A stretch of DNA of 64,000 bases from a candidate division WOR-3 bacterium (GCA_020353055.1 CP070686.1:638965-702964); one strand, 5' to 3'. Positions 11,082 through 54,950 are shown, numbered from the stretch's first letter. Notes: generated by a model not told the origin, from the sequence alone. Program-made: numbers and translations.

Positions 11082-11082
11082 A

Positions 11083-38910: not shown

Positions 38911-40788
38911 TCACTCGGCGATTTCATAAATATCGTTACTCCCGATCTGCATCGTAAGCCGCCCTCGTGATTCAATCAATTTTCTCTGTTCCGGGAAGAG
39001 ACCTTGATCATTTCTTTCATTATACTGCAATTCGAAGCCGTGCTTTTGCCATGCAGTCACAATGAGCTGGATACTTCGATCGTTCCGTATGTGCCTCGGA
39101 GGCATGCCTTGACTGATATCCCACAAGGGTGTGCCGGAAAGAAGAGAAATATCATAAGCGCCTGTTGTACCCCATGAACAAAATACATTTCTGTCACGAC
39201 TCTCCACTACATAACTTGCGAGTTGCTCTTGCCCTTGCCGCATAGGAATTGCCCACTCGAACCAGGCGGTATCGGTTATCAATCCTTTGATACTGAAAAC
39301 CATCAAGAGCATCAGAAGAACAGCCACAAAAGAAATTGTGATCGTGGTCCGTTTCTTATTGCTTACGTTTCGCATTCTTTCATTCTGTTCCGTAACGAAA
39401 TGACGAAAAAGATTTGCGCAACAGCCACCGATTAGAATGCAGAAAAACAATATGCCAACAATCAAATGCCTGGGCATACCCATACTATCAAAGAAGACCC
39501 ACCACGCCAGCCATGTACCTGTAGCAAGAAAGACAAAAAGCTTCAGAGGATATCTAAATCTTTCCTTTAGTAGTACGACCATCATGAGTATCATAACACC
39601 AGCGAATACCGGCCATGAAAACAATCTGTCGATGACGAGTAATTTAGCATAAACCGGCACCTCGACAGTTGATGCGAGTGTCATATGTATGTCCGATATG
39701 AACCAATAAGAGAAGATGTGACTCAGTACGGCCTTGGCATTGCCAAATAGAAGAACCTTGGACACTGTGTCCAGCACCCAAACTAGCGCAATACCTATAA
39801 TAGGACCCAACGTGATACCAAAGACCCGATCGCGTGATTTCTTGTTGATTCCTGAAACAAGCCCCGTGACAAGAAAAACAGGCGCGAGTAAAAGCAATGT
39901 AAACTTAAGCCATGTTGAGATACCAATCATCAAGCATGCCAGCAGCAATACCCACCGTGATTTGTAAGAACGCTGATATAACACGAAGATTCCGATCAGT
40001 AAAAATAGACAAGCAACGAACTCGGTCCGTGCTGAATCGGTGGCGATCAGGTGGTAGAATGGCAGCGGCAGCATTGATGCAAAGAATATCGCGTAACCGC
40101 CGGATCGATACCCGAATATTTGTTTAGTGACATACCCGAGAGCAATGATGCAAAGGGCACAGAAGATCGCGTAGAAGATTCTCGCACATAGAATATCCCC
40201 TCCGGCGACAACGCAAAGTATCGCAGGTATATATCGTACGAATGGTTCATCCCAGCGATCCTCTATTCTATTACCGGCCGCATCAATCGGCAGTATATTC
40301 CCGTTTGCTACGTACTCCTGAGCCCCGCCAAAACGAAGCGCAGCGTCAATGGATAGGGGCGTACTGAAAACACTCACGGTTAGCATGGCAATCAGGAAGA
40401 CTGCACCCACTAACCCCAAAACCCTCCCTATCTGTACGTCTTGAATACTGTTAACCAGTTTGATTTTTGTGAGAAATGAACGCAGGTTCTTCGCAAAATT
40501 AGGCAGAATATACCACGCGATCAGCAAAAGTACCCCGCAAGATAATGAAAATATGGCGATGAATCGCAAACGCGCCTGTGCAACGCCCAAACTCTGAAGC
40601 AATGCTTCTGTAACATGGCCGTCCGGACTGAACATCAAAGCAATTCGTGCAACAGCACTCCTATTCGCAAATATCAATTCCGACGCTAAAGTGCCGGCAC
40701 CCAGAACCACCGCACAGAGTGCTATTACGTGTATAGTAATACTATATCTTTTCCAGCCCGACATTCGGCATGAACCGCCCATAATCAA
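38911..40788 (-). CDS. Large polytopic membrane protein with C-terminal soluble domain, possibly a GT-C-type glycosyltransferase
   Basis: More than 12 hydrophobic segments. A loop carries RWDEPFVRY (DE..Y-like). The roughly 110-aa hydrophilic C-terminal domain is unassigned. Confidence 0.3.
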   Translation of the reverse strand: MIMGGSCRMSGWKRYSITIHVIALCAVVLGAGTLASELIFANRSAVARIALMFSPDGHVTEALLQSLGVAQARLRFIAIFSLSCGVLLLIAWYILPNFAKNLRSFLTKIKLVNSIQDVQIGRVLGLVGAVFLIAMLTVSVFSTPLSIDAALRFGGAQEYVANGNILPIDAAGNRIEDRWDEPFVRYIPAILCVVAGGDILCARIFYAIFCALCIIALGYVTKQIFGYRSGGYAIFFASMLPLPFYHLIATDSARTEFVACLFLLIGIFVLYQRSYKSRWVLLLACLMIGISTWLKFTLLLLAPVFLVTGLVSGINKKSRDRVFGITLGPIIGIALVWVLDTVSKVLLFGNAKAVLSHIFSYWFISDIHMTLASTVEVPVYAKLLVIDRLFSWPVFAGVMILMMVVLLKERFRYPLKLFVFLATGTWLAWWVFFDSMGMPRHLIVGILFFCILIGGCCANLFRHFVTEQNERMRNVSNKKRTTITISFVAVLLMLLMVFSIKGLITDTAWFEWAIPMRQGQEQLASYVVESRDRNVFCSWGTTGAYDISLLSGTPLWDISQGMPPRHIRNDRSIQLIVTAWQKHGFELQYNERNDQGLFPEQRKLIESRGRLTMQIGSNDIYEIAE

Positions 40789-40821
40789 TACACTCCTTCC
40801 ATGAACACCACAAGCTATGTG

Positions 40822-41817
40822 CTACTTTCTAAACGCATATACAACTCCACCCATAAGGCTTGTTGCCATGGCTATGGCGTAGACTAAAAGGGACATGGAA
40901 ATCGCTTCGGCACCTGATACGCCGACTCTGGTAAAGAAAAAAAGAAATGCCCCCTCGCGAATACCTATGCCATTCAGAGATATTGGCAACATTTCAAAGA
41001 TACCGATGAGCGGGCAGAACAAGAAGAAATAGATCACGGGGATATTCAGATGAAGAGACTGTGAAACTACGTAGACCACGATCACAACCGACAAAATCTG
41101 GTATACAAAGGACAATACTACAACCTTAATCAGACACCGTTTATCGTCCTTGTACAGGTAAATCGCGCGATGCATCTCGGCAAATTTATTCCGTAATTTG
41201 GTTGACCTCAGGATTGTTAAAATTCCGGAGAGCGATTTGAAGAGTCTTTTGTTGAATATAACAAACAGGGCGCACACATATCCTACAAAGAGACATATAA
41301 TTAGTACGATAATTCCGCGATCAACAATTATACCATAGCCAATCAGCAATGTCAGAATCGAAATCGTCAACAATGCCAGTAATCCACTTCCTCTCTCAAG
41401 AAAGACGGATGCGATGGACGCGGGCGTATTTTTGCTTAATCTTGACACGCTGTAGATCTTGTACGCCTCTCCTCCGATGGTTGAAAGGAAATTCCTCAAG
41501 AACATACTCACGAAATAAAACGATACAAGCGTCACAAGGCCTACGTCTATGCGGTGCACAGACAAAAGCATTTGCCATTTGTAAGAGCTTATGAAAACAC
41601 CAACCAGAAAAAGCATTAGGGCAGTAACGAGATACCCAATGTTTACTGAACTCACCGTATGACGCAAATCCACGAGGCCGACCTTGTGGAGCAGAAAGGC
41701 GATGAGCAAAGCACTAATGACGATTCTGAGAACTCTCAGCAGCAGTCCTTTACGCATTCTGATCATGTTATTGGCTCCGGTCGCTCGTTTCAATGTTGTG
41801 CAATGGCAAATGGTCAT
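40822..41817 (-). CDS. UPF0104 / flippase-like (lysyl-PG synthase TM-region-like) membrane protein
   Basis: N-terminus LRVLRIVISALLIAFLLHKVGLVDLRHTV, 8 TM-like segments, about 331 aa. It lies directly downstream of the ArnC-like GT2. Confidence 0.5.
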   Translation of the reverse strand: MTICHCTTLKRATGANNMIRMRKGLLLRVLRIVISALLIAFLLHKVGLVDLRHTVSSVNIGYLVTALMLFLVGVFISSYKWQMLLSVHRIDVGLVTLVSFYFVSMFLRNFLSTIGGEAYKIYSVSRLSKNTPASIASVFLERGSGLLALLTISILTLLIGYGIIVDRGIIVLIICLFVGYVCALFVIFNKRLFKSLSGILTILRSTKLRNKFAEMHRAIYLYKDDKRCLIKVVVLSFVYQILSVVIVVYVVSQSLHLNIPVIYFFLFCPLIGIFEMLPISLNGIGIREGAFLFFFTRVGVSGAEAISMSLLVYAIAMATSLMGGVVYAFRK

Positions 41818-41856
41818 TGAATAACAGCATGCTCTGATATTGTTTTTGGCTTTGTC

Positions 41857-42828
41857 CTAATCCAGAAAGTCTCTGATGCAATAAATCTTCCTATCATGGG
41901 ATTCGTAATAGATTCTAATAATCAACTCACCTATCAAACCCATGGCAATGAATTGCACACCTACAACGATCAGCAAGATCGCAAGTAGCATAAGTGGACG
42001 GCCGGCTAACTCGGCACCCCGAAATAACTTCAAATACGTTAAATAGGAGGCAATACAGAACCCCGTAAAACCAGTAATGAGTCCAAACAGCCCGAATATC
42101 TGCATCGGACGGGTCGAAAAACGCAATAGGAATTCCACCGTGAAAAGATCCAGGAGGACTCTGAGGGTCCTTGAAATACCGTATTTCGCAACACCATGTC
42201 GACGGGGATGGTGTGCAACCGGGATTTCCACGATCCTAGCTCCATTAAGAGACGCCAACGCGGGAATGAACCTGTGTAATTCACCATACAGATGAATATT
42301 CTTCACCGTATTACGCCTGTATGCCTTCAAGGTACAGCCGTAGTCATGTAATTTGACACCTGTTACTGTCGAAATTATGAAATTTGCAATATGGGACGGT
42401 ATTTTCCTCGTTATCAGCGTGTCTTTTCTGCACTTCCTCCATCCGCTGACAATATCGAATCCTTCTTCAAGTCTCTGAAGTAACACCGGGATATCTCCAG
42501 GATCGTTCTGCAAATCACCATCCATAGTTACTATCACATCACCGCGCGAGATATCGAATCCAGCGGCCAATGCTGCACTCTGACCATAATTACGCCTGAA
42601 TCGTATGACTTTAACGTGATTGTCTTTGTCATGCAAGGTTTTAAGAATTTCGAACGTTCCATCATCGCTTCCGTCATCCACAAAGATAATCTCGTAACTC
42701 AGTTTTAGTGATGCTTTGACAACTGTGTCTATTTTACCGTACAGTGCCGCTATGTTTTCGGCCTCGTTGTATACAGGAACTACAATTGATAATCTAAGGT
42801 CGTTAGTTCTTTCGGTCATCATTGCCAC
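41857..42828 (-). CDS. Polyprenyl-phosphate glycosyltransferase (GT2; ArnC/GtrB/DPM1-like Und-P-sugar synthase)
   Basis: LSIVVPVYNEAENI...IIFVDDGSDDGT...RFRRNYGQSAALAAGFDISRGDVIVTMDGDLQNDP, plus two C-terminal TM helices. Confidence 0.85.
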   Translation of the reverse strand: MAMMTERTNDLRLSIVVPVYNEAENIAALYGKIDTVVKASLKLSYEIIFVDDGSDDGTFEILKTLHDKDNHVKVIRFRRNYGQSAALAAGFDISRGDVIVTMDGDLQNDPGDIPVLLQRLEEGFDIVSGWRKCRKDTLITRKIPSHIANFIISTVTGVKLHDYGCTLKAYRRNTVKNIHLYGELHRFIPALASLNGARIVEIPVAHHPRRHGVAKYGISRTLRVLLDLFTVEFLLRFSTRPMQIFGLFGLITGFTGFCIASYLTYLKLFRGAELAGRPLMLLAILLIVVGVQFIAMGLIGELIIRIYYESHDRKIYCIRDFLD

Positions 42829-44272
42829 CTGCCCTGTTTCTATGGCTTACATATCTTACTGCAAACTGAGAAATTGCCAAAAAAATCGATACAAAGAATA
42901 TTCCAGTCTGACTACCACTAAGCCCAAAAAACTGGTATGTAGAAAAATGAGCAACCAGCATTGCCGTAAAAACGCTTAACAGTACTTGTAGGGACCGCCT
43001 ATGAGAGCTGTTGAAAGAAACTCTACGCGCAGCCCCGTGGACCATTTTGAAATAGCCCCACCAGAGATACGAGAATAGCATAAACCCTATGATTCCCACC
43101 TGCAATAACATATTGAAATTACCCACGTGTGCATCATTGTATTTTACGTATGAGTCAGAAAAACCCCACCCCAGTAACCAATTTTGCTTTATTCCCTCAA
43201 CTACGTGGGGCAACCTGACCGAGTATCTCTGATCAAAGGAAGTATCCACGCTGAATCTTCCCTGCATAACACTCGACAAGCGGCTAACGCGTACCCAGGA
43301 ATCCGTAAATCGTTCTTTCAGAGGGGTCACGTTCACGACGATGAGCAATAACAAACCAACGACAGACGCGATGTGAATATATCCTCTTGCACTTCTCTTA
43401 ATGAATATTAAATAGAACAGCAGCATGAGCGAGAACATTATTACCCAAATTCTCGTCGCGGACATGAATATGGACAAGCAACTGAGCACCATTACTACAT
43501 ACAAATAGACTCTGGTAAGTCTTCTCTTTTCGTGCTGCAAGAGAAACAGCGAGAATGCAAACGCAAAAAAAATCAGCACAACACCGCCCATGACAGGACG
43601 AAGCATACCGGTCTCGGTGTATGCAAGTTCACGTTGTCCAGCACTCAGAAGGTTCACGAATTCATTGCCCGAAAGGACGAAATAGACCTGGGTGAAAAGT
43701 ATGAAGAAAACCACCGGGAAAATAAGATGCATGAATCTACGGACCTGTTCCCAATCATATATTAGAAAGAGGAAGGAAAGAATCGCTGAATACATAAATG
43801 TACTGCGCAACATATTCGCGAGCACATTGATATCTGAACCATAAACAACTATAGACATAACCAACAGGAATATCCCATACAAAAGAACATAGGTAAGCGG
43901 TCTTTTCATTATCAGATCACATTTCCGGCCGTATACTAACGCCTTCACAAAAACCAAGAACACGAATAGATCCATGGGCGTGAGCGAAGTGCTCGGGAGA
44001 AATGTATAAATGGGCACGCGAGCCGTAGCTCCAATGCTGTATGCTTTGAACAACCACCCGGGTTGTGCTATGATGATAAAAAAGAAAGCGAACCAGAAAT
44101 AGTCTTTCTTTGTCAACAGAAATATAACCAGCACAACCAAGAAGAAAATCTTTGCGGCCTGCTGACTCATGAAATATATTGTATAAACAGAAGCAAAAAG
44201 CAGTATCGCCAGCAGGGCTAAGTCAATCACTAAGCGTGGTGGGTGTTTTTGCCTATTAAACGCTGGATTCAT
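42803..44272 (-). CDS. O-antigen ligase / Wzy-type polymerase family membrane protein
   Basis: About 10 TM segments. The periplasmic loop YNDAHVGNFNMLLQVGIIGFMLF fits the Wzy_C signature (H-N...E/Q-G..G). Confidence 0.55.
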   Translation of the reverse strand: MNPAFNRQKHPPRLVIDLALLAILLFASVYTIYFMSQQAAKIFFLVVLVIFLLTKKDYFWFAFFFIIIAQPGWLFKAYSIGATARVPIYTFLPSTSLTPMDLFVFLVFVKALVYGRKCDLIMKRPLTYVLLYGIFLLVMSIVVYGSDINVLANMLRSTFMYSAILSFLFLIYDWEQVRRFMHLIFPVVFFILFTQVYFVLSGNEFVNLLSAGQRELAYTETGMLRPVMGGVVLIFFAFAFSLFLLQHEKRRLTRVYLYVVMVLSCLSIFMSATRIWVIMFSLMLLFYLIFIKRSARGYIHIASVVGLLLLIVVNVTPLKERFTDSWVRVSRLSSVMQGRFSVDTSFDQRYSVRLPHVVEGIKQNWLLGWGFSDSYVKYNDAHVGNFNMLLQVGIIGFMLFSYLWWGYFKMVHGAARRVSFNSSHRRSLQVLLSVFTAMLVAHFSTYQFFGLSGSQTGIFFVSIFLAISQFAVRYVSHRNRAGGNDDRKN

Positions 44273-44317: not shown

Positions 44318-45658
44318 CTATTGGACATTCTGCAAAACATTACCACTTTTGCGCTTGGTCAATTCATATATCTGCAACATACCATATGAAGCCAATATGA
44401 TGATGAACGAGTCAATCGGATTTCTGTACCTCGTGAGCGCCCATTGCATTACGTGCAGCAACGTCTGAACGCACAAGGGAAATAGTAGAAACCAGACAAC
44501 TTTCTTTCTTTTAAGGAAAAGATCCATAATTCCCCAAACCATGAATGGCAAGAGCAATCCATATAGTAGTATACTGGCCAAATTGTGTCTCGTACTCCAA
44601 TATACGAACCGGCAATCAGGAAAGGGTCTGTACGCATAATTGAACCTGAATGGCCGCCAAAATTCCTTGAATTGAAACCATTTTCTTTGCAGGAATGTTG
44701 AATCCGGATAGACATTTTTCTTTATCGCATCGATTTCTTGAGGCGTTCGATTATTCGGATTCATATTTTGTTTTATAAAAATCCTTTCTTCCTCTGAGGG
44801 ATAATCATCCTTATGAGTCTGGCTGATAATTCCGAAATTCATCACGTTGACCTTCAACTGTCTTTCTATACTTTTATCCCTATCTTGAGGCGTTCTTAGA
44901 TCAAGAGTCCTTACGTTTATTAATACAAAACTGTTGTAAGCCAGGTAATTTCTGATCGTCCACGGGACCATAAATAAGACAGTAAGAACCACAAATAGAA
45001 AATAGTATCGTACCCCTTGCCAGAAGCGCCGATATACGACGAAGAGGATGACAAGAAAAGGAACGTAGAAGAGATACCTCGGGTCAGTGTGTATGAGGAC
45101 AGCAAATATCACCAAAATCAGCCAGAAATATCTCGAAATTCCTTTGTTATAGGTAAGATACCGATGGAAATAATAGAAAAACAGAATTACCAAGAAGAAA
45201 ATCATGGTTTCCGCCATCAACATCCTCACGTATTCCAAGTAATAAAGATAAATACCGGACCAAGCGAGCGATAGAAATGCAACTTTATCATTGAATATAT
45301 GCCTACTCAGTTTATAGATGAAAAAGCAGGTCAGCGTACTTATGAATGCGTGGAATATGTATACTGCAACAAGGTTATTGATACCGCACAAAAGATAGAT
45401 GGCGGCAACGACTATCGGATAGAAGGGTGCCCGGAATGCACCGTAAAAATCAGGGTTGGTCAACCAGTCCTCATTCTGAACGATCGCGGTTGCATAGCCG
45501 TTATAGCTCGTTGCATCTGCAATATTAACATCCGGATACCCCCACTTTACAGCCACCACGATTCTTAGCAGCAGAATGACCAACAGCATTAGTATGACTG
45601 GTCGATATTTCTGCCAGACAAAATACTGATTATATTTCATATTCGAAAATCCGGCCAT
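44318..45658 (-). CDS. GT-C fold membrane glycosyltransferase (PMT_2/ArnT-like, GT39/GT83-type)
   Basis: The first periplasmic loop PDVNIADATSYNGYATAIV parallels ArnT PDETRYAEISREM. About 11 TM segments. Confidence 0.5.
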   Translation of the reverse strand: MAGFSNMKYNQYFVWQKYRPVILMLLVILLLRIVVAVKWGYPDVNIADATSYNGYATAIVQNEDWLTNPDFYGAFRAPFYPIVVAAIYLLCGINNLVAVYIFHAFISTLTCFFIYKLSRHIFNDKVAFLSLAWSGIYLYYLEYVRMLMAETMIFFLVILFFYYFHRYLTYNKGISRYFWLILVIFAVLIHTDPRYLFYVPFLVILFVVYRRFWQGVRYYFLFVVLTVLFMVPWTIRNYLAYNSFVLINVRTLDLRTPQDRDKSIERQLKVNVMNFGIISQTHKDDYPSEEERIFIKQNMNPNNRTPQEIDAIKKNVYPDSTFLQRKWFQFKEFWRPFRFNYAYRPFPDCRFVYWSTRHNLASILLYGLLLPFMVWGIMDLFLKRKKVVWFLLFPLCVQTLLHVMQWALTRYRNPIDSFIIILASYGMLQIYELTKRKSGNVLQNVQ

Positions 45659-45803
45659 CTCTAATAATTATTCCCTATATATGTAGAAATGCATTACCCA
45701 ATCCGCAAACTCCCCCATCCTCCGATTGCCATGCCTTTGCTTCAAACAATAACCTCCACAATTTCCTTTCTCACACTCTACCAAGCAACATGGACATACA
45801 ACA

Positions 45804-46949
45804 CTAACTGAACATCAAGTAATTAGTAAACATCTTACCCAAATACCGAGGGTTCATGAGCATATTCGAATATGCTTGATTTGCCAAAGGGCAACAACAG
45901 CGACCATCCCTTATGTACTTCCGTACTTTCCTTGCCTTTCTCGAACCATATAGCGCGTAATAGTCATATCTGAAATCCCGAAGGTTACCTAATGAGTGTG
46001 CATAACCGAGAACACAACAGGGCCACAGCTCTCCATCATAGTTCAGATGGATATTCGATATACCTGCATAGCAAGGTATGACCTGTTTTCGTTCCCTGAG
46101 TATTTTCAACGCCAAATCATAGTAAACCAATCTCATTGATTCGGTCATCTTGGCAAGAGGCCTCTTGGTACTCAAATTCTTTTTGATCTTTTTTGTAAAA
46201 CTCACCATGAGTTTTTTGTACACTTCATCTGACGGCGTGATGTTCTCCCCGATGTTGAAGAACTCCTCACGCTGCTCCGCAATTTCGTTACGATAACTCT
46301 GTACACCTTGACTGTGCACCCAGTCTTCGATCTCGGTAAGATCAGCAACATTATAATTAGACACGACCGTGCCCAACTCGAGATGAAAATTCGGGTGTTC
46401 TTCCTCGATGACTTTCAATCTCTTGATAGTTTCTTCCAACCTCTCGAAGTTACCCTTCAACCCTCTGATTTCATCGTGCCTTTCACCAATGCCGTCGATG
46501 GAAGGTTTGACAGTCAGCGGGATCGTATGGTTGTATTTACTCATGGTCTCCAAAATCGTTCTCGTCATAGCGTCGATTCTCTCGGGAAGAAAGGCATTCG
46601 TCGGGATATGCACGATCCGGGGTTTGAGATATTGCATTGCGAGTTCAACAATCTCAGGCAAATCTCTTCGCAGGTATGGCTCACCCCCGCTGATGTTAAG
46701 ATAGTAAACCCGTCCTAAATTTTGAAATGTTTTCTCTATCTCCCCCAAACTCAGACTTTTTGCCTTAATTTCCTTGGCATTTTTCCTAAATTCCCTCCCA
46801 ATGTGGCAAGTTTTACACTCTGATTGACACATCCCCGTCACCGAAAACGTAATAGCGACCGGAGGACAAGCGCTCGCTTTATCATTCCGCGCCAACCTAC
46901 AGCGTATGATCATCGGTATAATGGAAAGTGTGTCGGTATTGATCCTCAT
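45804..46949 (-). CDS. Radical SAM enzyme with Cys-rich SPASM/twitch-like C-terminus
   Basis: CQSECKTC (CxxxCxxC). GGEP motif in NISGGEPYL. C-terminal Cys cluster IPCYAG...WPCCVLG...DGRCCCPLAN. Confidence 0.7.
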   Translation of the reverse strand: MRINTDTLSIIPMIIRCRLARNDKASACPPVAITFSVTGMCQSECKTCHIGREFRKNAKEIKAKSLSLGEIEKTFQNLGRVYYLNISGGEPYLRRDLPEIVELAMQYLKPRIVHIPTNAFLPERIDAMTRTILETMSKYNHTIPLTVKPSIDGIGERHDEIRGLKGNFERLEETIKRLKVIEEEHPNFHLELGTVVSNYNVADLTEIEDWVHSQGVQSYRNEIAEQREEFFNIGENITPSDEVYKKLMVSFTKKIKKNLSTKRPLAKMTESMRLVYYDLALKILRERKQVIPCYAGISNIHLNYDGELWPCCVLGYAHSLGNLRDFRYDYYALYGSRKARKVRKYIRDGRCCCPLANQAYSNMLMNPRYLGKMFTNYLMFS

Positions 46950-48385
46950 CCTCGCTCTATATGTACTCTTTGACGAAATAGATTCGCCAGGATCTCGAAA
47001 TCGGGCTGTCTGACTTCCCGTGTAGCATAGAGCACTACTACGTATAAAGTGTAGAGTGCGATAAATTTTACTACAAAACTGACTGGAATACTTATTGTCA
47101 CAATAGCAACAAGCAGTACGGCAGTCAAGGCGATCCCCACTTTTGCGATACTACCCACCTCGACTGAAAGACCATGTCTTCTCCGGACATAAAAGAAAGG
47201 CAGAATTACAATGACCGCCGCAGATATCATCGTTGATATAGCGCCACCTATCGGACCGATTACCGGAACAAGTATGGTATTCGTGATAACTGCAGCAGCA
47301 ATACCCAATAGCGAATACAAAACCATTGTTCTTTCTCCTTCCATACCGATCATTATGCTTGAGAACACATAAGCTATACCCAATAACATCAGCCCCCATA
47401 TCAAGACCGCCAGTATCATTCCTGCATCTCTGTATTCACTTCCATAGACTAATCCAATAATGTCATGACTGTATATGGATATTAGAAGGATCACCGGTAA
47501 TATCATCAGCAAAGAGTATCTCACGACATCATCAATATACTTAACCATTTGCTTTGATTCACCGCTCGTAAAAGTAGAGGAAACAAAGGGTAGAAGAACG
47601 ATCCCAAAAGCCGCGAAGTACCAGTAAATCAATCTTGAAATTGTCGCTGCCGAGGTATAGTATCCTGCGAATCGGCCGTCTGTGATGAATAGTTTCACTG
47701 CAAGCAGATCCGCGTTCATTATTACGGTCATAGCGCCGAACATCACCATTATCGGCAAGGCGTGTCTCAACAGGCTATTGATCCGTACATTAGTGTATTC
47801 GCTACCAGGCACGTCTCGTGTTAATATCGTACCCAGGACAAATGCGAAGACAGCACCAAGCAAGAATCCCAGCAGGCCTCCAATAACGCCCATCCCCATG
47901 TAAACCAATAAAACAGCTGCAAGTGCTTTCGCGATACCGTAACCACCCATTAAAACGTTTTCTGCCCTGAATTTTTTCAATCCGTTCAGCACACCCATAT
48001 TAACGAAAAACAAACTCTGCACCACGATAACGACAGCTACAATATACAGGGGCATCACCAGCTGCGGGTCATTGAACACGGCTGCCAGATATTTAGTAAA
48101 CAAAACCAACATAAAACCCAAAACCAATGAAATGCAAACTTGAACAACCAACGCCTTTTGCAGAAAATATTTTGCACTACCCGGTTTCTTCGATACAGAG
48201 TTTGAAACTGATTGCCTTACACCGTTGCCAAGCACTACATAGCAAATCGTAATGATCGCAATACAGATTCCGAAGGTACCATATCTTGCAGGACCCAGCA
48301 GACGCGCCAGGCAAATATGCATTACATAACCGCCAAGCACGAATATCAATCTAGAAATGAGACTGTATATTACACCCTTTGACAC
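46946..48385 (-). CDS. Second MOP-superfamily flippase (Wzx-like polysaccharide biosynthesis protein)
   Basis: 479 aa. 12-14 hydrophobic segments. N-terminus IYSLISRLIFVLGGYVMHICLARLLGPARYGTFG. Confidence 0.65.
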   Translation of the reverse strand: MSKGVIYSLISRLIFVLGGYVMHICLARLLGPARYGTFGICIAIITICYVVLGNGVRQSVSNSVSKKPGSAKYFLQKALVVQVCISLVLGFMLVLFTKYLAAVFNDPQLVMPLYIVAVVIVVQSLFFVNMGVLNGLKKFRAENVLMGGYGIAKALAAVLLVYMGMGVIGGLLGFLLGAVFAFVLGTILTRDVPGSEYTNVRINSLLRHALPIMVMFGAMTVIMNADLLAVKLFITDGRFAGYYTSAATISRLIYWYFAAFGIVLLPFVSSTFTSGESKQMVKYIDDVVRYSLLMILPVILLISIYSHDIIGLVYGSEYRDAGMILAVLIWGLMLLGIAYVFSSIMIGMEGERTMVLYSLLGIAAAVITNTILVPVIGPIGGAISTMISAAVIVILPFFYVRRRHGLSVEVGSIAKVGIALTAVLLVAIVTISIPVSFVVKFIALYTLYVVVLYATREVRQPDFEILANLFRQRVHIERG

Positions 48386-49509
48386 TATACCGCCGCGCTT
48401 TTCGCAGATTTGTCTGCTTTAAGATACGTGTAGTCCGCAACAGCAAAATCTAGCATTTCCATCGTCCTTACCACCTCAAGACCATCTTCACCATTAACCG
48501 GCATTGGATCATCGCGACGCAGAGCGCTATAGAAAGCACGCATAAGACCAAGATGACCCGGGCGCCGCTTGAGCCTACCCGCTGCTATCCGCACCGAATT
48601 GCCTATTGTCTGCCATACCTTTTGCATTGACTGTTCCAATGTAGATGCCATGCGTGCGGCGGTAAGTGGCAGGAAATCACGTATGCGCTCAATTGAATAC
48701 GTAAGGTCCATCATGTTTATATGCAAAGCCGCTTCACTACCATAGATGTCGATACCAAAATGACCGTATGGCATATTGTCGGTCACAAAAACCCTGGCAA
48801 CCGCTGCTTCACATTTAAGTTGAACCATCCACGAATGGATTGAATACGTCGTTTGTGAGTGACTGGAGTTGGTGCCGTGAATAAGCTGTAAACGGTTACA
48901 CGAACCGGCAAAAGACTGAAGAAGATAGACGGTATGGGGCATGAACTCACCTGCCGTCCCGCTCTTCAGCGTATGAACCCAGTGCTCGGGTGAATGCAAT
49001 CCCTCCACTTCCATCTTTCTATATTCATAGAAATGCCTGCCTTCAACACAAATAACTTCTCCAAGAAAACCTCTCCGGACGATCTCATGTGCCTTGATGA
49101 TCGTCGGGTCAAACATATGATTGTGCATCATACACAGTCTGGTTCCTGTTCTATTACGAATTTCGAGTATTTGTTGCGCATCCTCCACGGTCGTCGCCAT
49201 CGGTTTATCAAGCATGATATGACAGCCCTTTTCCATTGCCTGGATTGCAAGTGTGGCATGTGTTGCTGGCGGGGTGATAATGTGAACAACATCGGGTGTA
49301 TGATTGTTAAGCAGTTTATTGAAATCTGCATTCACAAGCGAGTCGCTCCCACTTTGTTGCGCCATCTTGTAAGCACGATTCTCGTCCTTGTCACAAAACC
49401 ACAGCACCTCAATATCCGGCACGACACGTAGCGCTCTCAAGTGATGTTTTGATCCCACCCCGCAACCGACTATTCCAACGGTTATTCTATTCAAACTCGC
49501 ACTTCGCAC
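48385..49509 (-). CDS. Gfo/Idh/MocA-family NAD(P)-dependent sugar oxidoreductase (WbpB-like)
   Basis: ITVGIVGCGVGSKHHLRAL Rossmann motif. DKP motif in ML-DKPMA. Confidence 0.75.
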   Translation of the reverse strand: MRSASLNRITVGIVGCGVGSKHHLRALRVVPDIEVLWFCDKDENRAYKMAQQSGSDSLVNADFNKLLNNHTPDVVHIITPPATHATLAIQAMEKGCHIMLDKPMATTVEDAQQILEIRNRTGTRLCMMHNHMFDPTIIKAHEIVRRGFLGEVICVEGRHFYEYRKMEVEGLHSPEHWVHTLKSGTAGEFMPHTVYLLQSFAGSCNRLQLIHGTNSSHSQTTYSIHSWMVQLKCEAAVARVFVTDNMPYGHFGIDIYGSEAALHINMMDLTYSIERIRDFLPLTAARMASTLEQSMQKVWQTIGNSVRIAAGRLKRRPGHLGLMRAFYSALRRDDPMPVNGEDGLEVVRTMEMLDFAVADYTYLKADKSAKSAAV

Positions 49510-49585
49510 AGGACCTACATTTTGACCAAGTATGCTATTGAAAGTAGATTCGTTATCTCTGGCATTTCTATGATATTACGAGCGG

Positions 49586-50566
49586 TCAAGAAAATAGTCT
49601 TTCTCGCCTACACCATTCGATTGTACGTTTCACACCTTGTTCAAGCGTGAGAGTCGAGCGAAAGTCCAAAAGCATACGAGCCTTGCTGTTATCTGTGCTA
49701 TGATCTTGGGTCAAGAATCTCACTTTGCTTGTTGTAATTGGAGATTCAACCCCTAAAATTCTATTGTACACCAACTCAAATAAGGCAGCGCCTGAATAGG
49801 CAAGGAAAGAAGGAACTTTACCAGTGGGTAGAGGTACACCGAAGCTTGATGCAATCGTCTTTAAGAAGTATTCCACCGTCACCTGCTCACCGGAGACGTT
49901 GAATATGCTATTGTATGCATGCTTGTTCTCTATACAGCTAATAAAAGCATTAACAGCATCAGTGACGTATGTCGGACTTATGGATGCCTGACCCGTTCCG
50001 ATCAAGTACATCCTGCCAGATTTGATTCGTTTATATAAAGGAACTCTCCTCAAATCGCCAGGTCCGTACACGAAATCCGGTCTTAAGATCGACCATTTTA
50101 TCCGTCTTTCTGCGCATAACTGCATAACCATACATTCGGCTGTGACTTTGGACTTTTCGTACATTCCTGCTGGGCCATAGGGCAAATCCTCCGTTGCCTT
50201 TTTGTAGCCAAACCCTTGAACACCAGGAGTACTACTAAATATGAATTGTTGTACGTCACTTGACACCTCAACCAAATGCCTGGTACCATTAACATTAACA
50301 TTCCAGATATCGCTATCTCTGTTGCTGGAGTCACCGAGCAAAGCAGCAAGGTGAAAAACAACATCTATGTTGTCTGTAATTCCGGCCAGGCTTCGTGGTT
50401 GCGTGATATCGCCGACCACGAACTCAATATGCTTAAGGCCTTTGTGAATTTCGGAGATATTATTGATGTCTCTGACCAAACATCGACAATGATATCCCTT
50501 CTCATCAAGAGTCTCGGTCAAATATCGACCTATGAAACCAGTTGCTCCTGTAACCAGAATTCTCAT
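49586..50566 (-). CDS. NAD-dependent epimerase/dehydratase (extended SDR)
   Basis: MRILVTGATGFIGRYLTETLDEKGYH. YEKSK. Confidence 0.75.
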   Translation of the reverse strand: MRILVTGATGFIGRYLTETLDEKGYHCRCLVRDINNISEIHKGLKHIEFVVGDITQPRSLAGITDNIDVVFHLAALLGDSSNRDSDIWNVNVNGTRHLVEVSSDVQQFIFSSTPGVQGFGYKKATEDLPYGPAGMYEKSKVTAECMVMQLCAERRIKWSILRPDFVYGPGDLRRVPLYKRIKSGRMYLIGTGQASISPTYVTDAVNAFISCIENKHAYNSIFNVSGEQVTVEYFLKTIASSFGVPLPTGKVPSFLAYSGAALFELVYNRILGVESPITTSKVRFLTQDHSTDNSKARMLLDFRSTLTLEQGVKRTIEWCRRERLFS

Positions 50567-51702
50567 GCCCTGACAAAATCTTGTTCAATCGAGTTGGTCA
50601 GATTCTCCCATGAGAACAGATGGCCGTCTTTCGATATGTTCTTCCTAAATGTTCGCAGCAAGTCATTATCGAAGCACCTTATGATTGCGTCAGCAAGTAA
50701 TGTAGAATCCTCGGGTGGTACAATCAAACCACGCCTCCCATTCTCTACCACGTACGGTAAATCACCGGTTGCCGTTGCTACGACAGGTTTGTTGAATCCA
50801 AATGCGATTTGGGTTACGCCGCTTCCAGTGGCCGTCACATAAGGCAAAACGACGACGTCGCAAGCAGAAAAATAGAGAAACACATCTTCATTGGGGATAT
50901 ACTCGTCGAGGATAAGAACATGATCAGCGACGTCGAATCTATGAATCATGTCAACAATCAAATCCTTCTCTTGCCAGAATTCTCCAGCGATGACTAAACA
51001 TAGATCGGGTATTTCTTTGATCACCCTGGGCATTGCTTCAATCAAATACCTTAAACCCTTGTATGGACGCACGATGCCGAAGAACAATAGAACTTTCTTG
51101 AATTCCGGTTCGATACCCAATCTCTGCCTAGCTTCACCGCGTTTTATTCGTTCACGGTTGAAGAACTTATATGTCGGATGAAAATTAAGTTTGATAACGG
51201 CGTGCGGGAAAAGTTGCTTGAGTCTATCATAATCATCTTGCGAGTGAGCAATATAAAAATCGCCACTGGTGAGCGCAAATTTCGACAAAAAATTCCGCCA
51301 GAAATTGGGCTCGTGTTCAATAACATTATGACATATATACAGGATCTTTGCACCGCTCCGAATCCGCGACAGCTGCGCAATGATCCAAAATGGCACTACC
51401 CAACCCCACATCCACCAAGCGAAGATCACAATAACTGGCGAGAAATCCGTGATAACCCTTGCCGCCTTTACCCATGATACCGGATTTGCCCAATCGATAA
51501 TTGGCAGAGCGTCATCTATCGACAGCTTGATTCTACTCTTATCACATCCGGGATCTCCTGGGTACAGTAACGCTGGGTACTGTCTGCTAAACGTCAGGAA
51601 CTTGACCCTATGCTTTTTCCGCAGTTGGAGACACAGAAGCGTTGAATAATGCGCAATGCCCCCCTTGAACGGGTAGGTAGGACCGACTAGTACGATATTC
51701 AT
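50563..51702 (-). CDS. Glycosyltransferase family 4
   Basis: VVLPYVTATGSGVTQIAFGFNKPVVATATGDLPYVVENG. Confidence 0.75.
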   Translation of the reverse strand: MNIVLVGPTYPFKGGIAHYSTLLCLQLRKKHRVKFLTFSRQYPALLYPGDPGCDKSRIKLSIDDALPIIDWANPVSWVKAARVITDFSPVIVIFAWWMWGWVVPFWIIAQLSRIRSGAKILYICHNVIEHEPNFWRNFLSKFALTSGDFYIAHSQDDYDRLKQLFPHAVIKLNFHPTYKFFNRERIKRGEARQRLGIEPEFKKVLLFFGIVRPYKGLRYLIEAMPRVIKEIPDLCLVIAGEFWQEKDLIVDMIHRFDVADHVLILDEYIPNEDVFLYFSACDVVVLPYVTATGSGVTQIAFGFNKPVVATATGDLPYVVENGRRGLIVPPEDSTLLADAIIRCFDNDLLRTFRKNISKDGHLFSWENLTNSIEQDFVRA

Positions 51703-52844
51703 TATGACGAGGAAGCTGTATGGTCAAAGTACCTGGATTCTTCGTGATTGTTCTCGTCGTATTCAAGGAGATAATCCAATACCTTCTCAGATGGAGAACA
51801 TCGGCTTTCCATCATCCAATTGCTCCTGAATGCCCTGAAATTATCTAGAAAATAGGTCACCCGGTCATCATTGAACTCGGCCATGAAGATATTGTGACCC
51901 TGTCCTTCCTGCCGTTCGGTCCTTTTTCTCAAAACCAAACAGGGTATATTCAGGTAATAACTCTCTTCTTGAATACTGCCACCATCGGTCACCAAGAATT
52001 CGGCACCGCTGATCAAATGAATAAAATCGGCATGTTCAAGCAGAGGTCGTAATTCTATGTTTTCTGTCCCTGTGAGCACCCTGTCAAGATGAAATCGCTT
52101 CAATTGCTTCGTGGTGGGTTCGTGCATCACCCAAACCAATGACCATGATTTTGAGATTCTGACAAGTAAATCGATAACATACCGCATCTTCTTCTTATTG
52201 AGTATTGTCTCAACCCGGTGTACAGTGGCGACCACAAACTTGCCTCGAGGTCTTGGACAATCGCTGCCTCGCGCCAGGGCATAACGCGTCGACTCTATAT
52301 TTGTATTGGCTCCCAGATTAATGATCTTGCCCTTGACATTCATCCTGGTTAGATTACTACAGGCCCAATACGAGGGCGCGAACAAAATATCAGCGAATTT
52401 CATTGTTACAACTCTGATAAGCTCCTCAGGAAAGGGATTTGAATAACTGAAAGACCGCAAACCGGCTTCAATATGAGCAACTGTTAATCCGGCTCTCTTC
52501 GCCAAGACCAATGAGATCAAAGTAGATGGCGTATCACCATGAATTACACAAATGCCGCGCTTATTGACAAAGATATTCTTCAATACCCAGTGCGGTGCAA
52601 AACACGCAAGCAAGATATATTTCAACCCCCACAAAAGAGCGTGAAAAACTCTGGCGATATCCTTGCCCTTTCTCAAATAAACGTCCGGGTCCCGTAAGCC
52701 CAATTCCCTTCTCAGTTTTCCTGACAAGCAGGCATGTTGTCCGGAATCCACCAGATTGTAGTCAATACCATGAAGGTCCAGTTTTCTCAACAGCGGTGCC
52801 GTTTTGATATACTGGGCTTTTGTACCAATGAAAATATGAATCAC
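51702..52844 (-). CDS. UDP-N-acetylglucosamine 2-epimerase family protein (WbpI/NeuC-like paralog)
   Basis: MIHIFIGTKAQYIKTAPLL...VIHGDTPSTLISLVLAKRAGLTVAHIEAGLRSF. Confidence 0.7.
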   Translation of the reverse strand: MIHIFIGTKAQYIKTAPLLRKLDLHGIDYNLVDSGQHACLSGKLRRELGLRDPDVYLRKGKDIARVFHALLWGLKYILLACFAPHWVLKNIFVNKRGICVIHGDTPSTLISLVLAKRAGLTVAHIEAGLRSFSYSNPFPEELIRVVTMKFADILFAPSYWACSNLTRMNVKGKIINLGANTNIESTRYALARGSDCPRPRGKFVVATVHRVETILNKKKMRYVIDLLVRISKSWSLVWVMHEPTTKQLKRFHLDRVLTGTENIELRPLLEHADFIHLISGAEFLVTDGGSIQEESYYLNIPCLVLRKRTERQEGQGHNIFMAEFNDDRVTYFLDNFRAFRSNWMMESRCSPSEKVLDYLLEYDENNHEESRYFDHTASSS

Positions 52845-52869
52845 ATCAGGTTGATCAGAACAACATTCA

Positions 52870-53976
52870 TTAATTGTAATGTAACACCGTATTTATGGTT
52901 CTGAGCGTATAGGTATTGACCAACGAGGCTGCCAGTAGTTCCCAGCCGTGCAAACTACGCACCTTGCATTTGCTGCAACAGGTTATTGCCGCCCTGGCAT
53001 CCGCGATATGTCGACTTCTGAATTCGACAAAATCACTCCCACCCCACACATCCGAAATAGTTTGCCTGTTCAAATCACCAAGGACACATTGCTTATCATA
53101 AATGTAATGGCAAGGAACAACCGTGCCGTCCCAGAATACACTCAGGTGGCGCCAGAGACGATCACAAGGCAGCACACTTCCTGCGTTCGTATTGCTTTTG
53201 TAAGAACTGAGCATATTAATTGCATCAACATCACCCGTCCATGTCATGAGCGGCTTGAGATGCACCTGTATGCCTCTATTGGTCCAGTAATCGGTGAATC
53301 TCTTTATCTCACGCGCGTTATCCTGCATCTCAATAAGTTGCACTACAACATGCCTGGGAGAAGCGGAGGTCCTATTTCTCAAAAAAGTCTCGACATTGCT
53401 CAAGACTTTTCCGTAATTTATGCTGCCCCTGATGCGCGAATAGGTTGCTGCGGTAATACCATCCAGACTTATGGTGAGAAAATCAATATGTGAATCGATC
53501 AACGAACGAGAAATACTTTCATTAAGCGGTATGCCGTTTGTTGAAAGGGCAACATACATACCGGCTGCTTTGCAGTATCTTATCATCTCACAGATTTGAG
53601 GGTGCAACAATGGCTCACCGAACAAATATAACTCAACATAGTCAATTTTACCCCTCGCTTGATCTATTATTCTTCTGAACAACGAGAAATCCATAAACCC
53701 AAGATCGCGCTTCATATGCAATCGCGGGCACATTTTACATTTGAGATTACACTTGTTTGTCACCTCCAAATGAAGAATAACGGGAAACCCCCGAATGCGT
53801 GGACGGCGACGTATATAGCTGGTCATGATCCTGCTTCTATTTCTCAACGCATTCAAATTAATTGCTTCCCTATCGATGAGTCTTACGATTTTTGTGAGTT
53901 TTTTCAGCACAATATGCCTATACCCTTGAAGATTCCAAATCCATGACGTCAAAATACTGTGTAACTGCACATGCAA
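52870..53976 (-). CDS. Radical SAM / SPASM-domain enzyme
   Basis: VTNKCNLKCKMC (CxxxCxxC). C-terminal VVPCHYIYDKQC...AITCCSKCKV is typical of a SPASM auxiliary cluster. Confidence 0.7.
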   Translation of the reverse strand: MHVQLHSILTSWIWNLQGYRHIVLKKLTKIVRLIDREAINLNALRNRSRIMTSYIRRRPRIRGFPVILHLEVTNKCNLKCKMCPRLHMKRDLGFMDFSLFRRIIDQARGKIDYVELYLFGEPLLHPQICEMIRYCKAAGMYVALSTNGIPLNESISRSLIDSHIDFLTISLDGITAATYSRIRGSINYGKVLSNVETFLRNRTSASPRHVVVQLIEMQDNAREIKRFTDYWTNRGIQVHLKPLMTWTGDVDAINMLSSYKSNTNAGSVLPCDRLWRHLSVFWDGTVVPCHYIYDKQCVLGDLNRQTISDVWGGSDFVEFRSRHIADARAAITCCSKCKVRSLHGWELLAASLVNTYTLRTINTVLHYN

Positions 53977-54002: not shown

Positions 54003-54950
54003 CTAAGGTAGGAGCTCTTTCTTCCTATAATAGTAGAGCAACTTCTCGATCAACTTACGGTTGTCAGCTATCAGATCTGCAACTATTCCAAGGAGGAAGA
54101 GTATGAAGGAAATGATAACCAGTATGGCAGCGAAGATCAGCGATTGTATGTGGCCTGTCGCTTGCTCAGGTATCAGTATGAAGAAATACAAAAAACGTAA
54201 TCCAAGCAGGAGACCTGGGACTAGAAATAGGAAACCGAGATATGTGAACGTCTTCAAAGCCTTATACATCGCGTAAGATCTTATTATTGTCTGAATTTGA
54301 CTGGCCATGAAGTGAAGAGTTCCCCTGTGCAATCTTGATGCTCTTAACGGAACATTAGTGCCCACGGGGACAGATATCACTCTGAACTTTTCAGCACCCA
54401 ACTGAATAAGATTCTCGACCGTATAGGAAAACTCACTCATAATATTGATCCGCATTGCAGATTCCCTTGAATAAGCCCTAAAGCCGCTTACCGCATCACT
54501 TATATCTACATTTGATAACCGCCTCACCAGCGCACTGCCGACTTTTTGAAGCAACTTTTTCGAAGGCGAGAATGTCGATATCCTGCTTGTCTGTCTGTCA
54601 CCGATGACGATATCAGCCTCGTGGTTTAGAATGGGTTTAACTAGTCTGGGGATATTCTCACCACTATACTGATTATCCGCATCGGTATTGACAATTATGT
54701 CTGCGCCCAACTCCAGGCACTTTTCTATGCCTGCTGCGAACGCCCGTGCCAAACCCCTGTTATACTTGAAAGAAAGAATATGTTGAACCCCATTCTGCCG
54801 TGCAACTTCAACCGTACGGTCGGTACTGCCATCATCGATGACCAAGATTTCAATCTCATGAATACCCGGGATACTCGCGGGTAGATCATCCAGTGTCTCT
54901 TTTAAACACTTCTCCTCGTTGTAACAGGGTATTTGTATTATCAATTTCAT
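54003..54950 (-). CDS. Polyprenyl-phosphate glycosyltransferase-like GT2 (DPM1/ArnC-like) with C-terminal TM helices
   Basis: MKLIIQIPCYNEEKCL...LVIDDGSTDRT...NTDADNQY. Two hydrophobic helices at the C-terminus. Confidence 0.75.
   Translation of the reverse strand: MKLIIQIPCYNEEKCLKETLDDLPASIPGIHEIEILVIDDGSTDRTVEVARQNGVQHILSFKYNRGLARAFAAGIEKCLELGADIIVNTDADNQYSGENIPRLVKPILNHEADIVIGDRQTSRISTFSPSKKLLQKVGSALVRRLSNVDISDAVSGFRAYSRESAMRINIMSEFSYTVENLIQLGAEKFRVISVPVGTNVPLRASRLHRGTLHFMASQIQTIIRSYAMYKALKTFTYLGFLFLVPGLLLGLRFLYFFILIPEQATGHIQSLIFAAILVIISFILFLLGIVADLIADNRKLIEKLLYYYRKKELLP

Follow-up and report, generated by a model that had tools for sequence, protein, structure and literature searches.

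Radical S-adenosylmethionine (SAM) enzymes of the SPASM type share a seven-cysteine signature (CX9-15GX4C...CX2CX5CX3C...C) that holds two auxiliary clusters, and the twitch domain is its truncated form, in which a CX(n)GX4C hairpin and two later cysteines fully ligate a single auxiliary [4Fe-4S] cluster. The superfamily, the twitch subclass and its carbohydrate-acting members are already known: BtrN (PDB 4M7T) is the 2-deoxy-scyllo-inosamine dehydrogenase of butirosin biosynthesis, the radical SAM diol dehydratase AprD4 works with the NADPH reductase AprD3 in the C3' deoxygenation of apramycin biosynthesis, and HygY and NeoN are twitch sugar epimerases that use a cysteine as hydrogen donor. 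To our knowledge, carbohydrate radical SAM chemistry has been described almost only from antibiotic and cofactor pathways, and a role of radical SAM enzymes in the building of cell-surface glycans is essentially unexplored. Here we describe two twitch-type radical SAM proteins, RS-A and RS-B, encoded in a stretch of 64,000 nucleotides from a candidate division WOR-3 bacterium (GCA_020353055.1 CP070686.1:638965-702964; the window), and report that RS-A is, by its gene neighbourhoods, the signature enzyme of a mobile cassette predicted to comprise a family 2 glycosyltransferase (GT2), a family 4 glycosyltransferase (GT4), a short-chain dehydrogenase/reductase (SDR), a flippase, RS-A itself and a GT-C glycosyltransferase.

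Such a cassette can be compared with several systems that act on lipid-linked sugars. DprE1 and DprE2 epimerise decaprenyl-phosphoryl-ribose, and three-component glycosylation systems join a polyprenyl-phosphate-sugar synthase, a flippase and a GT-C enzyme (PMC11127046, PMC8035078). The radical SAM enzymes Cds, in calditol formation, and HpnJ, in formation of the hopanoid cyclitol ether, act on lipid-linked sugar head groups, where a ring contraction has been proposed (PMC13459092). In gpgSDF, a GT4 and a head-group-modifying deacetylase stand alongside a PF03706 (PplT) flippase (PMC12713373), and PplT, known as the domain of MprF that flips lipids, frequently occurs in one protein with a lipid-modifying enzyme (10.1101/2022.03.11.483950).

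The CxxxCxxC motif was found in only two of the 45 window open reading frames (ORFs) of at least 150 aa, namely RS-A (45804-46949, minus strand) and the longest ORF containing RS-B (52870-53976, minus strand), in agreement with the preliminary description of this DNA, which had picked out the clusters CQSECKTC and CNLKCKMC. Both proteins also carry a GGEP/GEP motif and score above the gathering cut-off of the Pfam Radical_SAM family (PF04055, 29.5 bits; Table 1), so that their membership of the superfamily is clear. The upstream end previously given for RS-B has to be moved: position 53976 is the TTG of the longest ORF and lies 66 nt too far upstream, as six homologues with lengths of 346-349 aa, among them one with 99% identity, begin at the position of a GTG at 53910, which is preceded by AAGGG 12 nt upstream; the gene is therefore 52870-53910. 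The cysteine-rich C termini that had been noticed are conserved features. In RS-A, C293, C311 and C353 are invariant, C351 is kept in 99% and C312 in 79% of 74 homologues (25-67% identity), and among 61 homologues of RS-B (346-aa numbering) C267, C312 and C315 never vary, C249 being kept in at least 90%. Neither protein shows a transmembrane segment in its sequence or in its AlphaFold2 (AF2) model.

With four auxiliary cysteines each, arranged as CX12GX4C...CX2C in RS-B and as CX12GX4C...CXC in RS-A, the two proteins have a twitch architecture with one auxiliary cluster. The earlier assignment to SPASM/twitch enzymes is thereby kept for the twitch (BtrN-type) half and given up for the full seven-cysteine SPASM domain (PF13186/TIGR04085): RS-A, with four invariant C-terminal cysteines, scores 19.4 bits, just below the Pfam SPASM cut-off of 21.5, and RS-B passes it with 51.1, yet has only four conserved C-terminal cysteines. 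Each enzyme is thus predicted from its motifs to carry a SAM-cleaving [4Fe-4S] cluster and one fully cysteine-ligated auxiliary cluster. Among the best 25 NCBIfam matches of each protein no model reached its cut-off, the best being TIGR04053 for RS-A (57.7 against 395) and TIGR04317 (130.6 against 380), TIGR04311 (110.5 against 400) and TIGR04321 (98 against 250) for RS-B, and a Pfam scan found no B12-binding domain in either protein, so that a class B (cobalamin) methyltransferase function is not indicated.

RS-B is the closer of the two to a described enzyme. In a search of the PDB with its family profile, BtrN was the top match (E 2e-34, next match 1.5e-17), in an alignment covering BtrN residues 162-260, and with the single sequence BtrN was matched at E 1.4e-11. 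The AF2 model (pLDDT 92) superposes on BtrN 4m7t with a Foldseek TM of 0.81, an rmsd of 3.4 Å and about 18% identity, and C267, C312 and C315 align with three BtrN cysteines, which we take to be the auxiliary-cluster ligands C188, C232 and C235; the C-terminal cysteines thus fall on twitch positions, as the preliminary description had anticipated. RS-B shares with BtrN the compact radical SAM core, the twitch domain, the positions of its four auxiliary cysteines and a carbohydrate context. However, at 18% identity and with no aminoglycoside or 2-deoxystreptamine genes among the window ORFs, RS-B does not qualify as an orthologue of this DOIA dehydrogenase; it is longer by about 40 helical residues at the N terminus and 25 at the C terminus, and it sits beside a UDP-sugar 2-epimerase homologue in a surface-glycan locus. 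RS-A (AF2 pLDDT 91) is a more distant relative of the same clade and finds only generic SPASM/twitch fold matches (TM about 0.55-0.59 in Foldseek, about 0.5-0.6 overall), among them SkfB and CteB, the top Foldseek matches, BlsE, MoaA, DesII and the anaerobic sulfatase-maturating enzyme (anSME). The homology of the two proteins extends from end to end but is remote (hhalign probability 99.2%, 16% identity), and about 45 helical residues that RS-B lacks are inserted in RS-A ahead of the twitch domain. Judged by sequence and context, they stand for separate families that are only distantly related and keep different partners, and no characterised member of either was found in the PDB, in NCBIfam or in the literature searched.

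The evidence for a glycan-linked function of RS-A comes mainly from its gene neighbourhoods. A stand-alone operon of six genes, GT2-GT4-SDR-Wzx-RS-A-PMT_2, was found at a related locus, L171:3446-10910 (ENA ERZ869946 NODE_13), flanked by an ammonium-transporter/ABC region on one side and by unrelated genes on the other. From 54950 to 44318, the window contains the same genes in the same order with two insertions: RS-B and an Epimerase_2 gene separate GT2 from GT4, and a GFO/IDH/MocA oxidoreductase gene separates the SDR gene from Wzx. The locus L165 has the gene order of the window, L003 and L167 have the same genes permuted, the GT2 keeps its position in L165 and L171, and the PMT_2 gene follows RS-A in L001-L004, L165, L167 and L171. 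The genes around RS-A and RS-B are tightly packed, with gaps of 25-145 nt and, in several cases, overlaps of 1-4 nt. The flippase, glycosyltransferase and epimerase neighbours that had been named beforehand are confirmed by Pfam as Wzx, GT4, GT2, the SDR (the 'epimerase') and Epimerase_2. With the GT2, Wzx and PMT_2 genes the cassette has the gene set of a transmembrane glycosylation system built from several components, the activities and the lipid carrier being predicted.

ORFs were called in 80 genome loci of RS-A homologues and compared with the window proteins, and partners were counted in the 36 loci that extend for 5 kb or more to either side. Within these, as lower bounds, the GT4 was met near RS-A in 22 of 36, the GtrB-like GT2 likewise in 22 and the SDR in 19, while 29 encode, within 8 kb, a polytopic membrane protein of 400 aa or longer. 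Large membrane neighbours of RS-A belong mainly to GT-C families, with PMT_2 (21), PMT (7), YfhO (4), GT87 (4), TMEM260-like (4) and STT3 (2) proteins, and Wzx-type flippases also occur. The association concerns particular paralogues: 44 of 52 GT4-like ORFs near RS-A were closest to the cassette GT4 when compared also with five other GT4s of the window, and 37 of 49 SDR-like ORFs were closest to the cassette SDR when three other window SDRs were included, while the loci retrieved with RS-B showed no such bias toward the cassette GT4 and SDR paralogues. Three kinds of protein that are not encoded in the window also recur near RS-A elsewhere: a weakly methyltransferase-like protein of about 270 aa (29 loci, e.g. 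L059:14807-15619), a DUF362 protein (8 loci, e.g. L075:11135-12274) and a DUF218 protein (8 loci, e.g. L032:8748-9413).

The cassette GT2 has two C-terminal hydrophobic segments and is of the polyprenyl-phosphate glycosyltransferase type, its best NCBIfam names being AglJ and PpgS, both below cut-off. The GT4 finds as its best named, weak matches MshA, GlcNAc-PG synthase and monoglucosyl-diacylglycerol synthase, which are lipid or polyol glycosyltransferases, and the nearest named relatives of the SDR are OleD, HpnA (121 bits), SdmB and NSDHL, enzymes with lipidic 3-oxo/3-hydroxy substrates.

Natural fusions add to the synteny. In nine genomes of Fermentibacterota and relatives (loci L036, L038, L039, L040, L045, L046, L050, L052 and L054), RS-A forms the C-terminal half of a protein of about 700 aa (ORFs of 700-747 aa) whose N-terminal half is an LPG_synthase_TM/PplT domain, and P0242 is a further fusion of this kind. 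A YfhO-like protein of 750-910 aa precedes the fusion gene in eight of the nine loci, the preceding ORF of L040 being unassigned to that cluster. More distant RS-A-like domains (30-49% identity, in a representative library) are fused to GT2 (five proteins), to a GT4-type domain (one), to an FAD_binding_6 reductase domain (one), to a PTPS_related membrane domain (one), which we take to be GT-C-like, and to HEAT/LRV repeats (P0333, P0341, P0342, P0367, P0379, P0385, P0243, P0336 and P0290). These fusions to glycosyltransferase and membrane domains are the strongest argument for a sugar substrate, probably a lipid-linked one. Since the same neighbours recur in unrelated phyla and single proteins join an RS-A-like domain to a GT2, GT4, flippase or GT-C-like domain, the suggested association with glycan genes is not one of chance, and the link of RS-A and RS-B to glycan assembly, as read from the genomes, is well supported.

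The RS-A family is large, well conserved and uncharacterised. A collection clustered at 90% contains 2607 homologues, of which the best 120 share 57-74% identity with RS-A; a library of 1.84 billion representatives yields 432 clusters at E<=1e-30, and a species-level genome set at least 557 matching stretches. The carriers are mostly anaerobes from many phyla of Bacteria (Aminicenantes, Desulfobacterales, Syntrophobacter, Clostridia, Chloroflexota, Planctomycetota, Omnitrophota, Fermentibacterota and Cloacimonadota) and Archaea (Nanoarchaeia, Methanosarcinales, ANME-1, Bathyarchaeia, Micrarchaeota and Methanomassiliicoccales), with Desulfosarcina variabilis (L035) and Pelotomaculum terephthalicicum (L062) as examples in culture. 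RS-A of the window is 100% identical to an NCBI protein from a metagenome-assembled genome of candidate division WOR-3, the source of the stretch; an exact-sequence look-up returned no record. On plasmids only distant relatives were found (at most 27% identity), none of them in Brachyspira.

RS-B has a different constant partner. Seven close orthologues (at least 52% identity) are in the collection, and all those with context (window, L003, L004, L165 and L167) lie in RS-A cassettes and are each directly followed by Epimerase_2. The best PDB matches of this divergent epimerase are UDP-GlcNAc 2-epimerase and UDP-2,3-diacetamido-2,3-dideoxyglucuronate 2-epimerase, and immediately upstream lie a WbpE-like DegT aminotransferase gene and a gene for a fused 3-dehydrogenase/N-acetyltransferase (WbpB plus WbpD-like). 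These WbpB/WbpE/WbpD-like genes and the relatives of the epimerase point to a 2,3-diacetamido sugar, which is plausible, on these homologies, as the substrate family of RS-B. A metagenome scan of 80 loci with distant RS-B relatives revealed regions rich in radical SAM genes together with methyltransferases, GT2 and PMT_2/YfhO genes, with a B12-radical SAM gene next to the relative in 19 of the 80; these neighbours are heterogeneous and add little on the function of the orthologue group. One glycan locus, L169 (Logan ERR14788038_36661), has five radical SAM genes, two of them B12-binding, one RS-B-like and two others, interleaved with YfhO, GT2, GT4, DegT, methyltransferase and 3beta-hydroxysteroid dehydrogenase (3beta-HSD)-type SDR genes.

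Based on these observations, we propose that RS-A and RS-B modify sugars in glycan assembly, which we regard as highly probable, and that RS-A does so at the lipid-linked stage, for which we see about an even chance. The sugar on which RS-A acts is likely attached to a lipid and not a free UDP-sugar. In the proposed sequence, the GT2 would make a polyprenyl-phosphate (or other lipid-linked) sugar at the cytoplasmic face, and the GT4 may extend it to a short saccharide. RS-A, through the 5'-deoxyadenosyl radical, would then take a hydrogen atom from a sugar carbon, and its auxiliary cluster would accept the second electron to give a keto-sugar, as in BtrN, which the SDR would reduce with net epimerisation, following the logic of DprE1/DprE2, or, after an elimination, with deoxygenation, following that of AprD4/AprD3. 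The product would be flipped by Wzx here, and by PplT elsewhere, and the GT-C enzyme PMT_2 would hand the flipped sugar to an acceptor outside the cell. This pairing of an oxidation by RS-A with a reduction by the SDR is offered tentatively, by analogy with those systems, and it is speculative that C312, which adjoins a cluster ligand, could serve as the hydrogen donor as in radical SAM epimerases. RS-B would be a BtrN-like add-on working with the WecB/WbpI-like 2-epimerase, most likely to oxidise or epimerise an amino sugar supplied by the WbpB/WbpE/WbpD-like genes, either as a UDP-sugar or after the upstream GT2 has loaded it on the lipid. The explanation as a whole, in which both twitch enzymes modify sugars during the assembly of a lipid-anchored surface glycan and RS-A follows the sequence just given, appears to us evenly poised.

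This proposal resembles the known systems in part only. With DprE1/DprE2 and the three-component systems the RS-A cassette has in common a polyprenyl-phosphate-type GT2, a flippase, a GT-C enzyme and a putative oxidant together with an NAD(P)H reductase, whereas its oxidant would be a radical SAM enzyme instead of a flavoenzyme, its reductase is an extended SDR of the 3beta-HSD type and not a classical SDR of the DprE2 type, and it has an extra GT4. The pairing of a radical SAM enzyme with a ketoreductase recalls AprD4/AprD3, and the extra cysteine C312 recalls HygY and NeoN, likenesses drawn from the description of those enzymes, but the substrates of those enzymes are soluble aminoglycoside intermediates, unlike the one proposed for RS-A. 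Like Cds, HpnJ and gpgSDF, RS-A would edit a sugar on a membrane lipid, and PF03706/PplT is coupled to the modifying enzyme in the RS-A fusions; the cassette differs from these by its GT-C and Wzx genes, which point to onward transfer of the sugar.

Other explanations have to be weighed against it. The proteins could be maturases similar to those of ribosomally synthesised peptides modified after translation (RiPPs), either sactisynthase-like or anSME-like, that act on an unrecognised small peptide or a glycan-associated protein and stand in a glycan setting by chance. Peptide maturases do account for the top Foldseek matches of RS-A and for many NCBIfam matches, but the equivalog scores for RiPP maturases (PqqE, AlbA, SkfB, CteB, MftC and others) fall 4-20x below cut-off, the best models cited above are also far below theirs, and the four conserved auxiliary cysteines compare with seven in SPASM maturases. 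No anSME model was among the best 25 of 43 NCBIfam families for RS-A or the best 25 of 68 for RS-B, and the AF2 models show short helices at both N termini and no domain resembling a RiPP recognition element. A Pfam scan of all window ORFs of at least 150 aa found no sulfatase, peptidase or RiPP transporter. A survey of every intergenic ORF of 15 aa or more from 36 to 61 kb found none resembling a precursor peptide; the only cysteine-containing small ORF near the radical SAM genes, 38 aa with three cysteines (45668-45784, minus strand), occupies the 145 nt that separate RS-A from PMT_2, a gap of 9-60 nt in relatives, and since 170 related loci contain no homologue of it, the ORF probably arose by chance. 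Together with the glycosyltransferase synteny and the fusions, which hold across phyla, these results make a peptide substrate very improbable. They support the preliminary view that the radical chemistry is directed at a sugar and that no precursor peptide is encoded nearby, and the anSME/sulfatase pairing that had been named as a counter-indication is absent, with no sulfatase in the window and no anSME cut-off reached.

If the substrate is a sugar, its physical state can be read in more than one way. Both enzymes might act on soluble cytoplasmic nucleotide sugars before glycosyltransfer, RS-B on a UDP-ManNAc(3NAc)-type product of the epimerase and RS-A on a UDP-sugar that the SDR then reduces. 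BtrN, DesII, HygY and NeoN all act on soluble substrates, both proteins lack transmembrane segments, the fusion of GT2 with a radical SAM domain is compatible with modification of the donor sugar, and RS-B adjoins a UDP-sugar 2-epimerase homologue in every orthologue with context, downstream of WbpB/WbpD/WbpE-like UDP-sugar enzymes. This possibility is most plausible for RS-B. For RS-A, however, its union in nine genomes with a domain that flips lipids, its fusion in one protein with the PTPS_related membrane domain, the constant company of a polyprenyl-phosphate-type GT2 and of GT-C enzymes that use lipid-linked donors, and an SDR that resembles lipid-substrate 3beta-HSD/OleD/HpnA enzymes and not NDP-sugar 4,6-dehydratases speak for a lipid-linked stage, and for the pair of enzymes together we consider the soluble route rather unlikely. 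Less probable again is that RS-A acts not on a glycan precursor but on a membrane glycolipid, whose head group it would remodel in a synthase-modifier-flippase scheme like that of gpgSDF/hexSDF, for example by contraction of a hexose to a carbocycle. The published precedents for such remodelling (PMC12713373, PMC13459092), the PplT fusion and the separate PplT gene in the window, the lipid or polyol glycosyltransferases among the weak matches of the cassette GT4 and the resemblance of the SDR to HpnA would fit it. However, the GT-C transferases and Wzx flippases, which imply transfer to another acceptor, accompany RS-A in most loci and make it less likely, the window is a Wzx/Wzy/Wzc polysaccharide locus, the HpnJ model is not among the best 25 of 43 NCBIfam matches of RS-A, and no B12-binding domain is present.

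Several points nevertheless weigh against the lipid-linked editing proposed here for RS-A and against the chemistry attached to it. As neither family has a characterised member, the type of reaction is argued by analogy, and twitch enzymes also include epimerases, dehydratases, decarboxylases and enzymes that form C-C bonds. RS-A fits BtrN weakly (Foldseek TM 0.39/0.56), its best PDB matches being peptide maturases, BlsE and MoaA at a TM of about 0.55. The SDR is missing from about half of the RS-A loci and is thus not an obligate partner, and many loci are short and their ORF calls crude, so that the co-occurrence counts are minimum values. The distant RS-B relatives (30-38% identity) occur in different neighbourhoods, often beside B12-radical SAM genes, and the GT2 fusions would be equally compatible with action on a nucleotide sugar before transfer. 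The substrates, the sites of attack and the products named above for both enzymes are accordingly put forward as conjectures, next to a fold, motifs, synteny and fusions that are shown.

Table 1. Coordinates of the two radical SAM genes, their motifs and the neighbouring genes in the window
Feature	Coordinates	Strand	Basis and remarks
RS-A, 381-aa twitch-type radical SAM enzyme	45804..46949	-	Pfam Radical_SAM 51.5 bits
RS-A cluster motif CQSECKTC, aa 41-48	46806..46829	-	invariant in 74 homologues
RS-A twitch segment C293-X12-G-X4-C311(C312)...C351-X-C353	45891..46073	-	homologue alignment
RS-B, 346-aa BtrN-like twitch radical SAM enzyme	52870..53910	-	Pfam Radical_SAM 56.7 bits, SPASM 51.1 bits
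RS-B cluster motif CNLKCKMC	53728..53751	-	invariant in homologues
RS-B twitch segment C249-X12-G-X4-C267...C312-X2-C315	52966..53166	-	homologue alignment; aligns to BtrN auxiliary-cluster cysteines
GtrB/AglJ-like GT2, first gene of the cassette	54003..54950	-	Pfam Glycos_transf_2 99.6 bits
Divergent Epimerase_2, WecB/WbpI-like	51702..52844	-	Pfam 176 bits; TIGR00236 (WecB equivalog) 163 against cut-off 210
GT4 co-conserved with RS-A	50563..51702	-	Pfam; synteny
Extended SDR, 3beta-HSD/HpnA/OleD type	49586..50566	-	Pfam, NCBIfam; proposed ketoreductase partner
GFO/IDH/MocA oxidoreductase	48385..49509	-	Pfam; accessory, closest relatives only
Wzx-type flippase	46946..48385	-	Pfam; 3' end overlaps RS-A start by 4 nt; same order in L171
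PMT_2 (GT-C fold) membrane glycosyltransferase	44318..45658	-	Pfam; directly downstream of RS-A
Wzy_C protein	42803-44272		downstream of the cassette
Second GtrB-like GT2	41857-42828	-	Pfam
PplT/LPG_synthase_TM flippase-like protein	40822-41817	-	Pfam; same domain as that fused to RS-A in Fermentibacterota
Second PMT_2 GT-C	38911-40788	-	Pfam

The surroundings of the cassette form a glycan locus of about 53 kb, from about 8 kb to 61 kb, which fills nearly all of the window and has almost every gene on the minus strand. The Pfam scan identified in it two Bac_transf phosphoglycosyltransferases, six further GT4s, several GT2s, DegT aminotransferases, SDR dehydratases/epimerases, a UDP-sugar 6-dehydrogenase, three Epimerase_2 genes, asparagine-synthase-like amidotransferases, two Wzx flippases, a Wzy_C protein and a Wzc-type co-polymerase/kinase, and the window is accordingly read as a Wzx/Wzy/Wzc polysaccharide locus. 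No tRNA or Rfam family was found in the window, and promoter- and terminator-like sites occur at chance level and so give no information on operon boundaries. Directly downstream of the RS-A cassette lies a second complete set of GT2, PplT flippase-like and PMT_2 genes (38911-42828). Three asparagine-synthase-like amidotransferase genes (9249-11090, 16333-18204 and 18231-20054, the third with a Pfam Asn_synthase score of 19 bits, below the cut-off of 21) and a FemAB-like gene (13450-14457) suggest uronic acids that are amidated or substituted with amino acids. In its longest ORF (34668-36293), the second Wzx gene opens with a cysteine-rich stretch of 33 aa (MRYCRGWCSCHQRCSSSNSCC...; 36194-36293), which overlaps, in another frame, the 3' end of a 214-aa hexapeptide (LbH) acetyltransferase ORF (36197-36841); it is almost certainly an artefact of ORF calling, the real start being an ATG near 36194.

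Clusters of radical SAM genes in glycan loci are met outside this lineage as well. A radical SAM block on the plasmid pBHWA1 of Brachyspira hyodysenteriae lies among lipooligosaccharide (LOS)/rhamnose genes, and its presence correlates with virulence (PMC4267127). In this block (L168, NC_012226.1:7270-20028), six of the seven annotated radical SAM/SPASM genes are RS-B-like over their full length in tblastn (22-27% identity, E down to 2e-33) and the seventh has a short match of 86 residues to RS-B; all are uncharacterised and stand among rhamnan-synthesis, glycosyltransferase, NAD-epimerase, rfbC and rfbF genes. Unlike the window, the plasmid has no RS-A orthologue, and its glycosyltransferase and epimerase are not homologous to the GT4 and SDR of the window.

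In the literature searched, we found no described precedent for a radical SAM enzyme as a fixed part of a GT2/GT4/SDR/flippase/GT-C cassette, and no paper that ties a SPASM or twitch enzyme to polysaccharide assembly. We would cautiously entertain the view that RS-A stands for oxygen-independent editing of sugars on a polyprenyl-phosphate or other lipid carrier, in which a radical SAM oxidant and an SDR reductase form an anaerobic counterpart of DprE1/DprE2, or carry out deoxygenation or ring contraction at the lipid level, and that an autonomous, horizontally mobile six-gene cassette decorates the surfaces of hundreds of anaerobic bacterial and archaeal lineages with an undescribed sugar. Anaerobes, among them Brachyspira, a pathogen of pigs, commonly have radical SAM genes in their glycan loci, and a compact, widespread cassette with clear partners and natural fusions is a defined target for enzymology, which may reveal a new sugar or an oxygen-free way of sugar epimerisation or deoxygenation. 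Such work would sharpen the annotation of thousands of metagenome proteins that are labelled merely 'radical SAM protein', and the cassette could account for some of the diversity among surface glycans in uncultured anaerobic Bacteria and Archaea.

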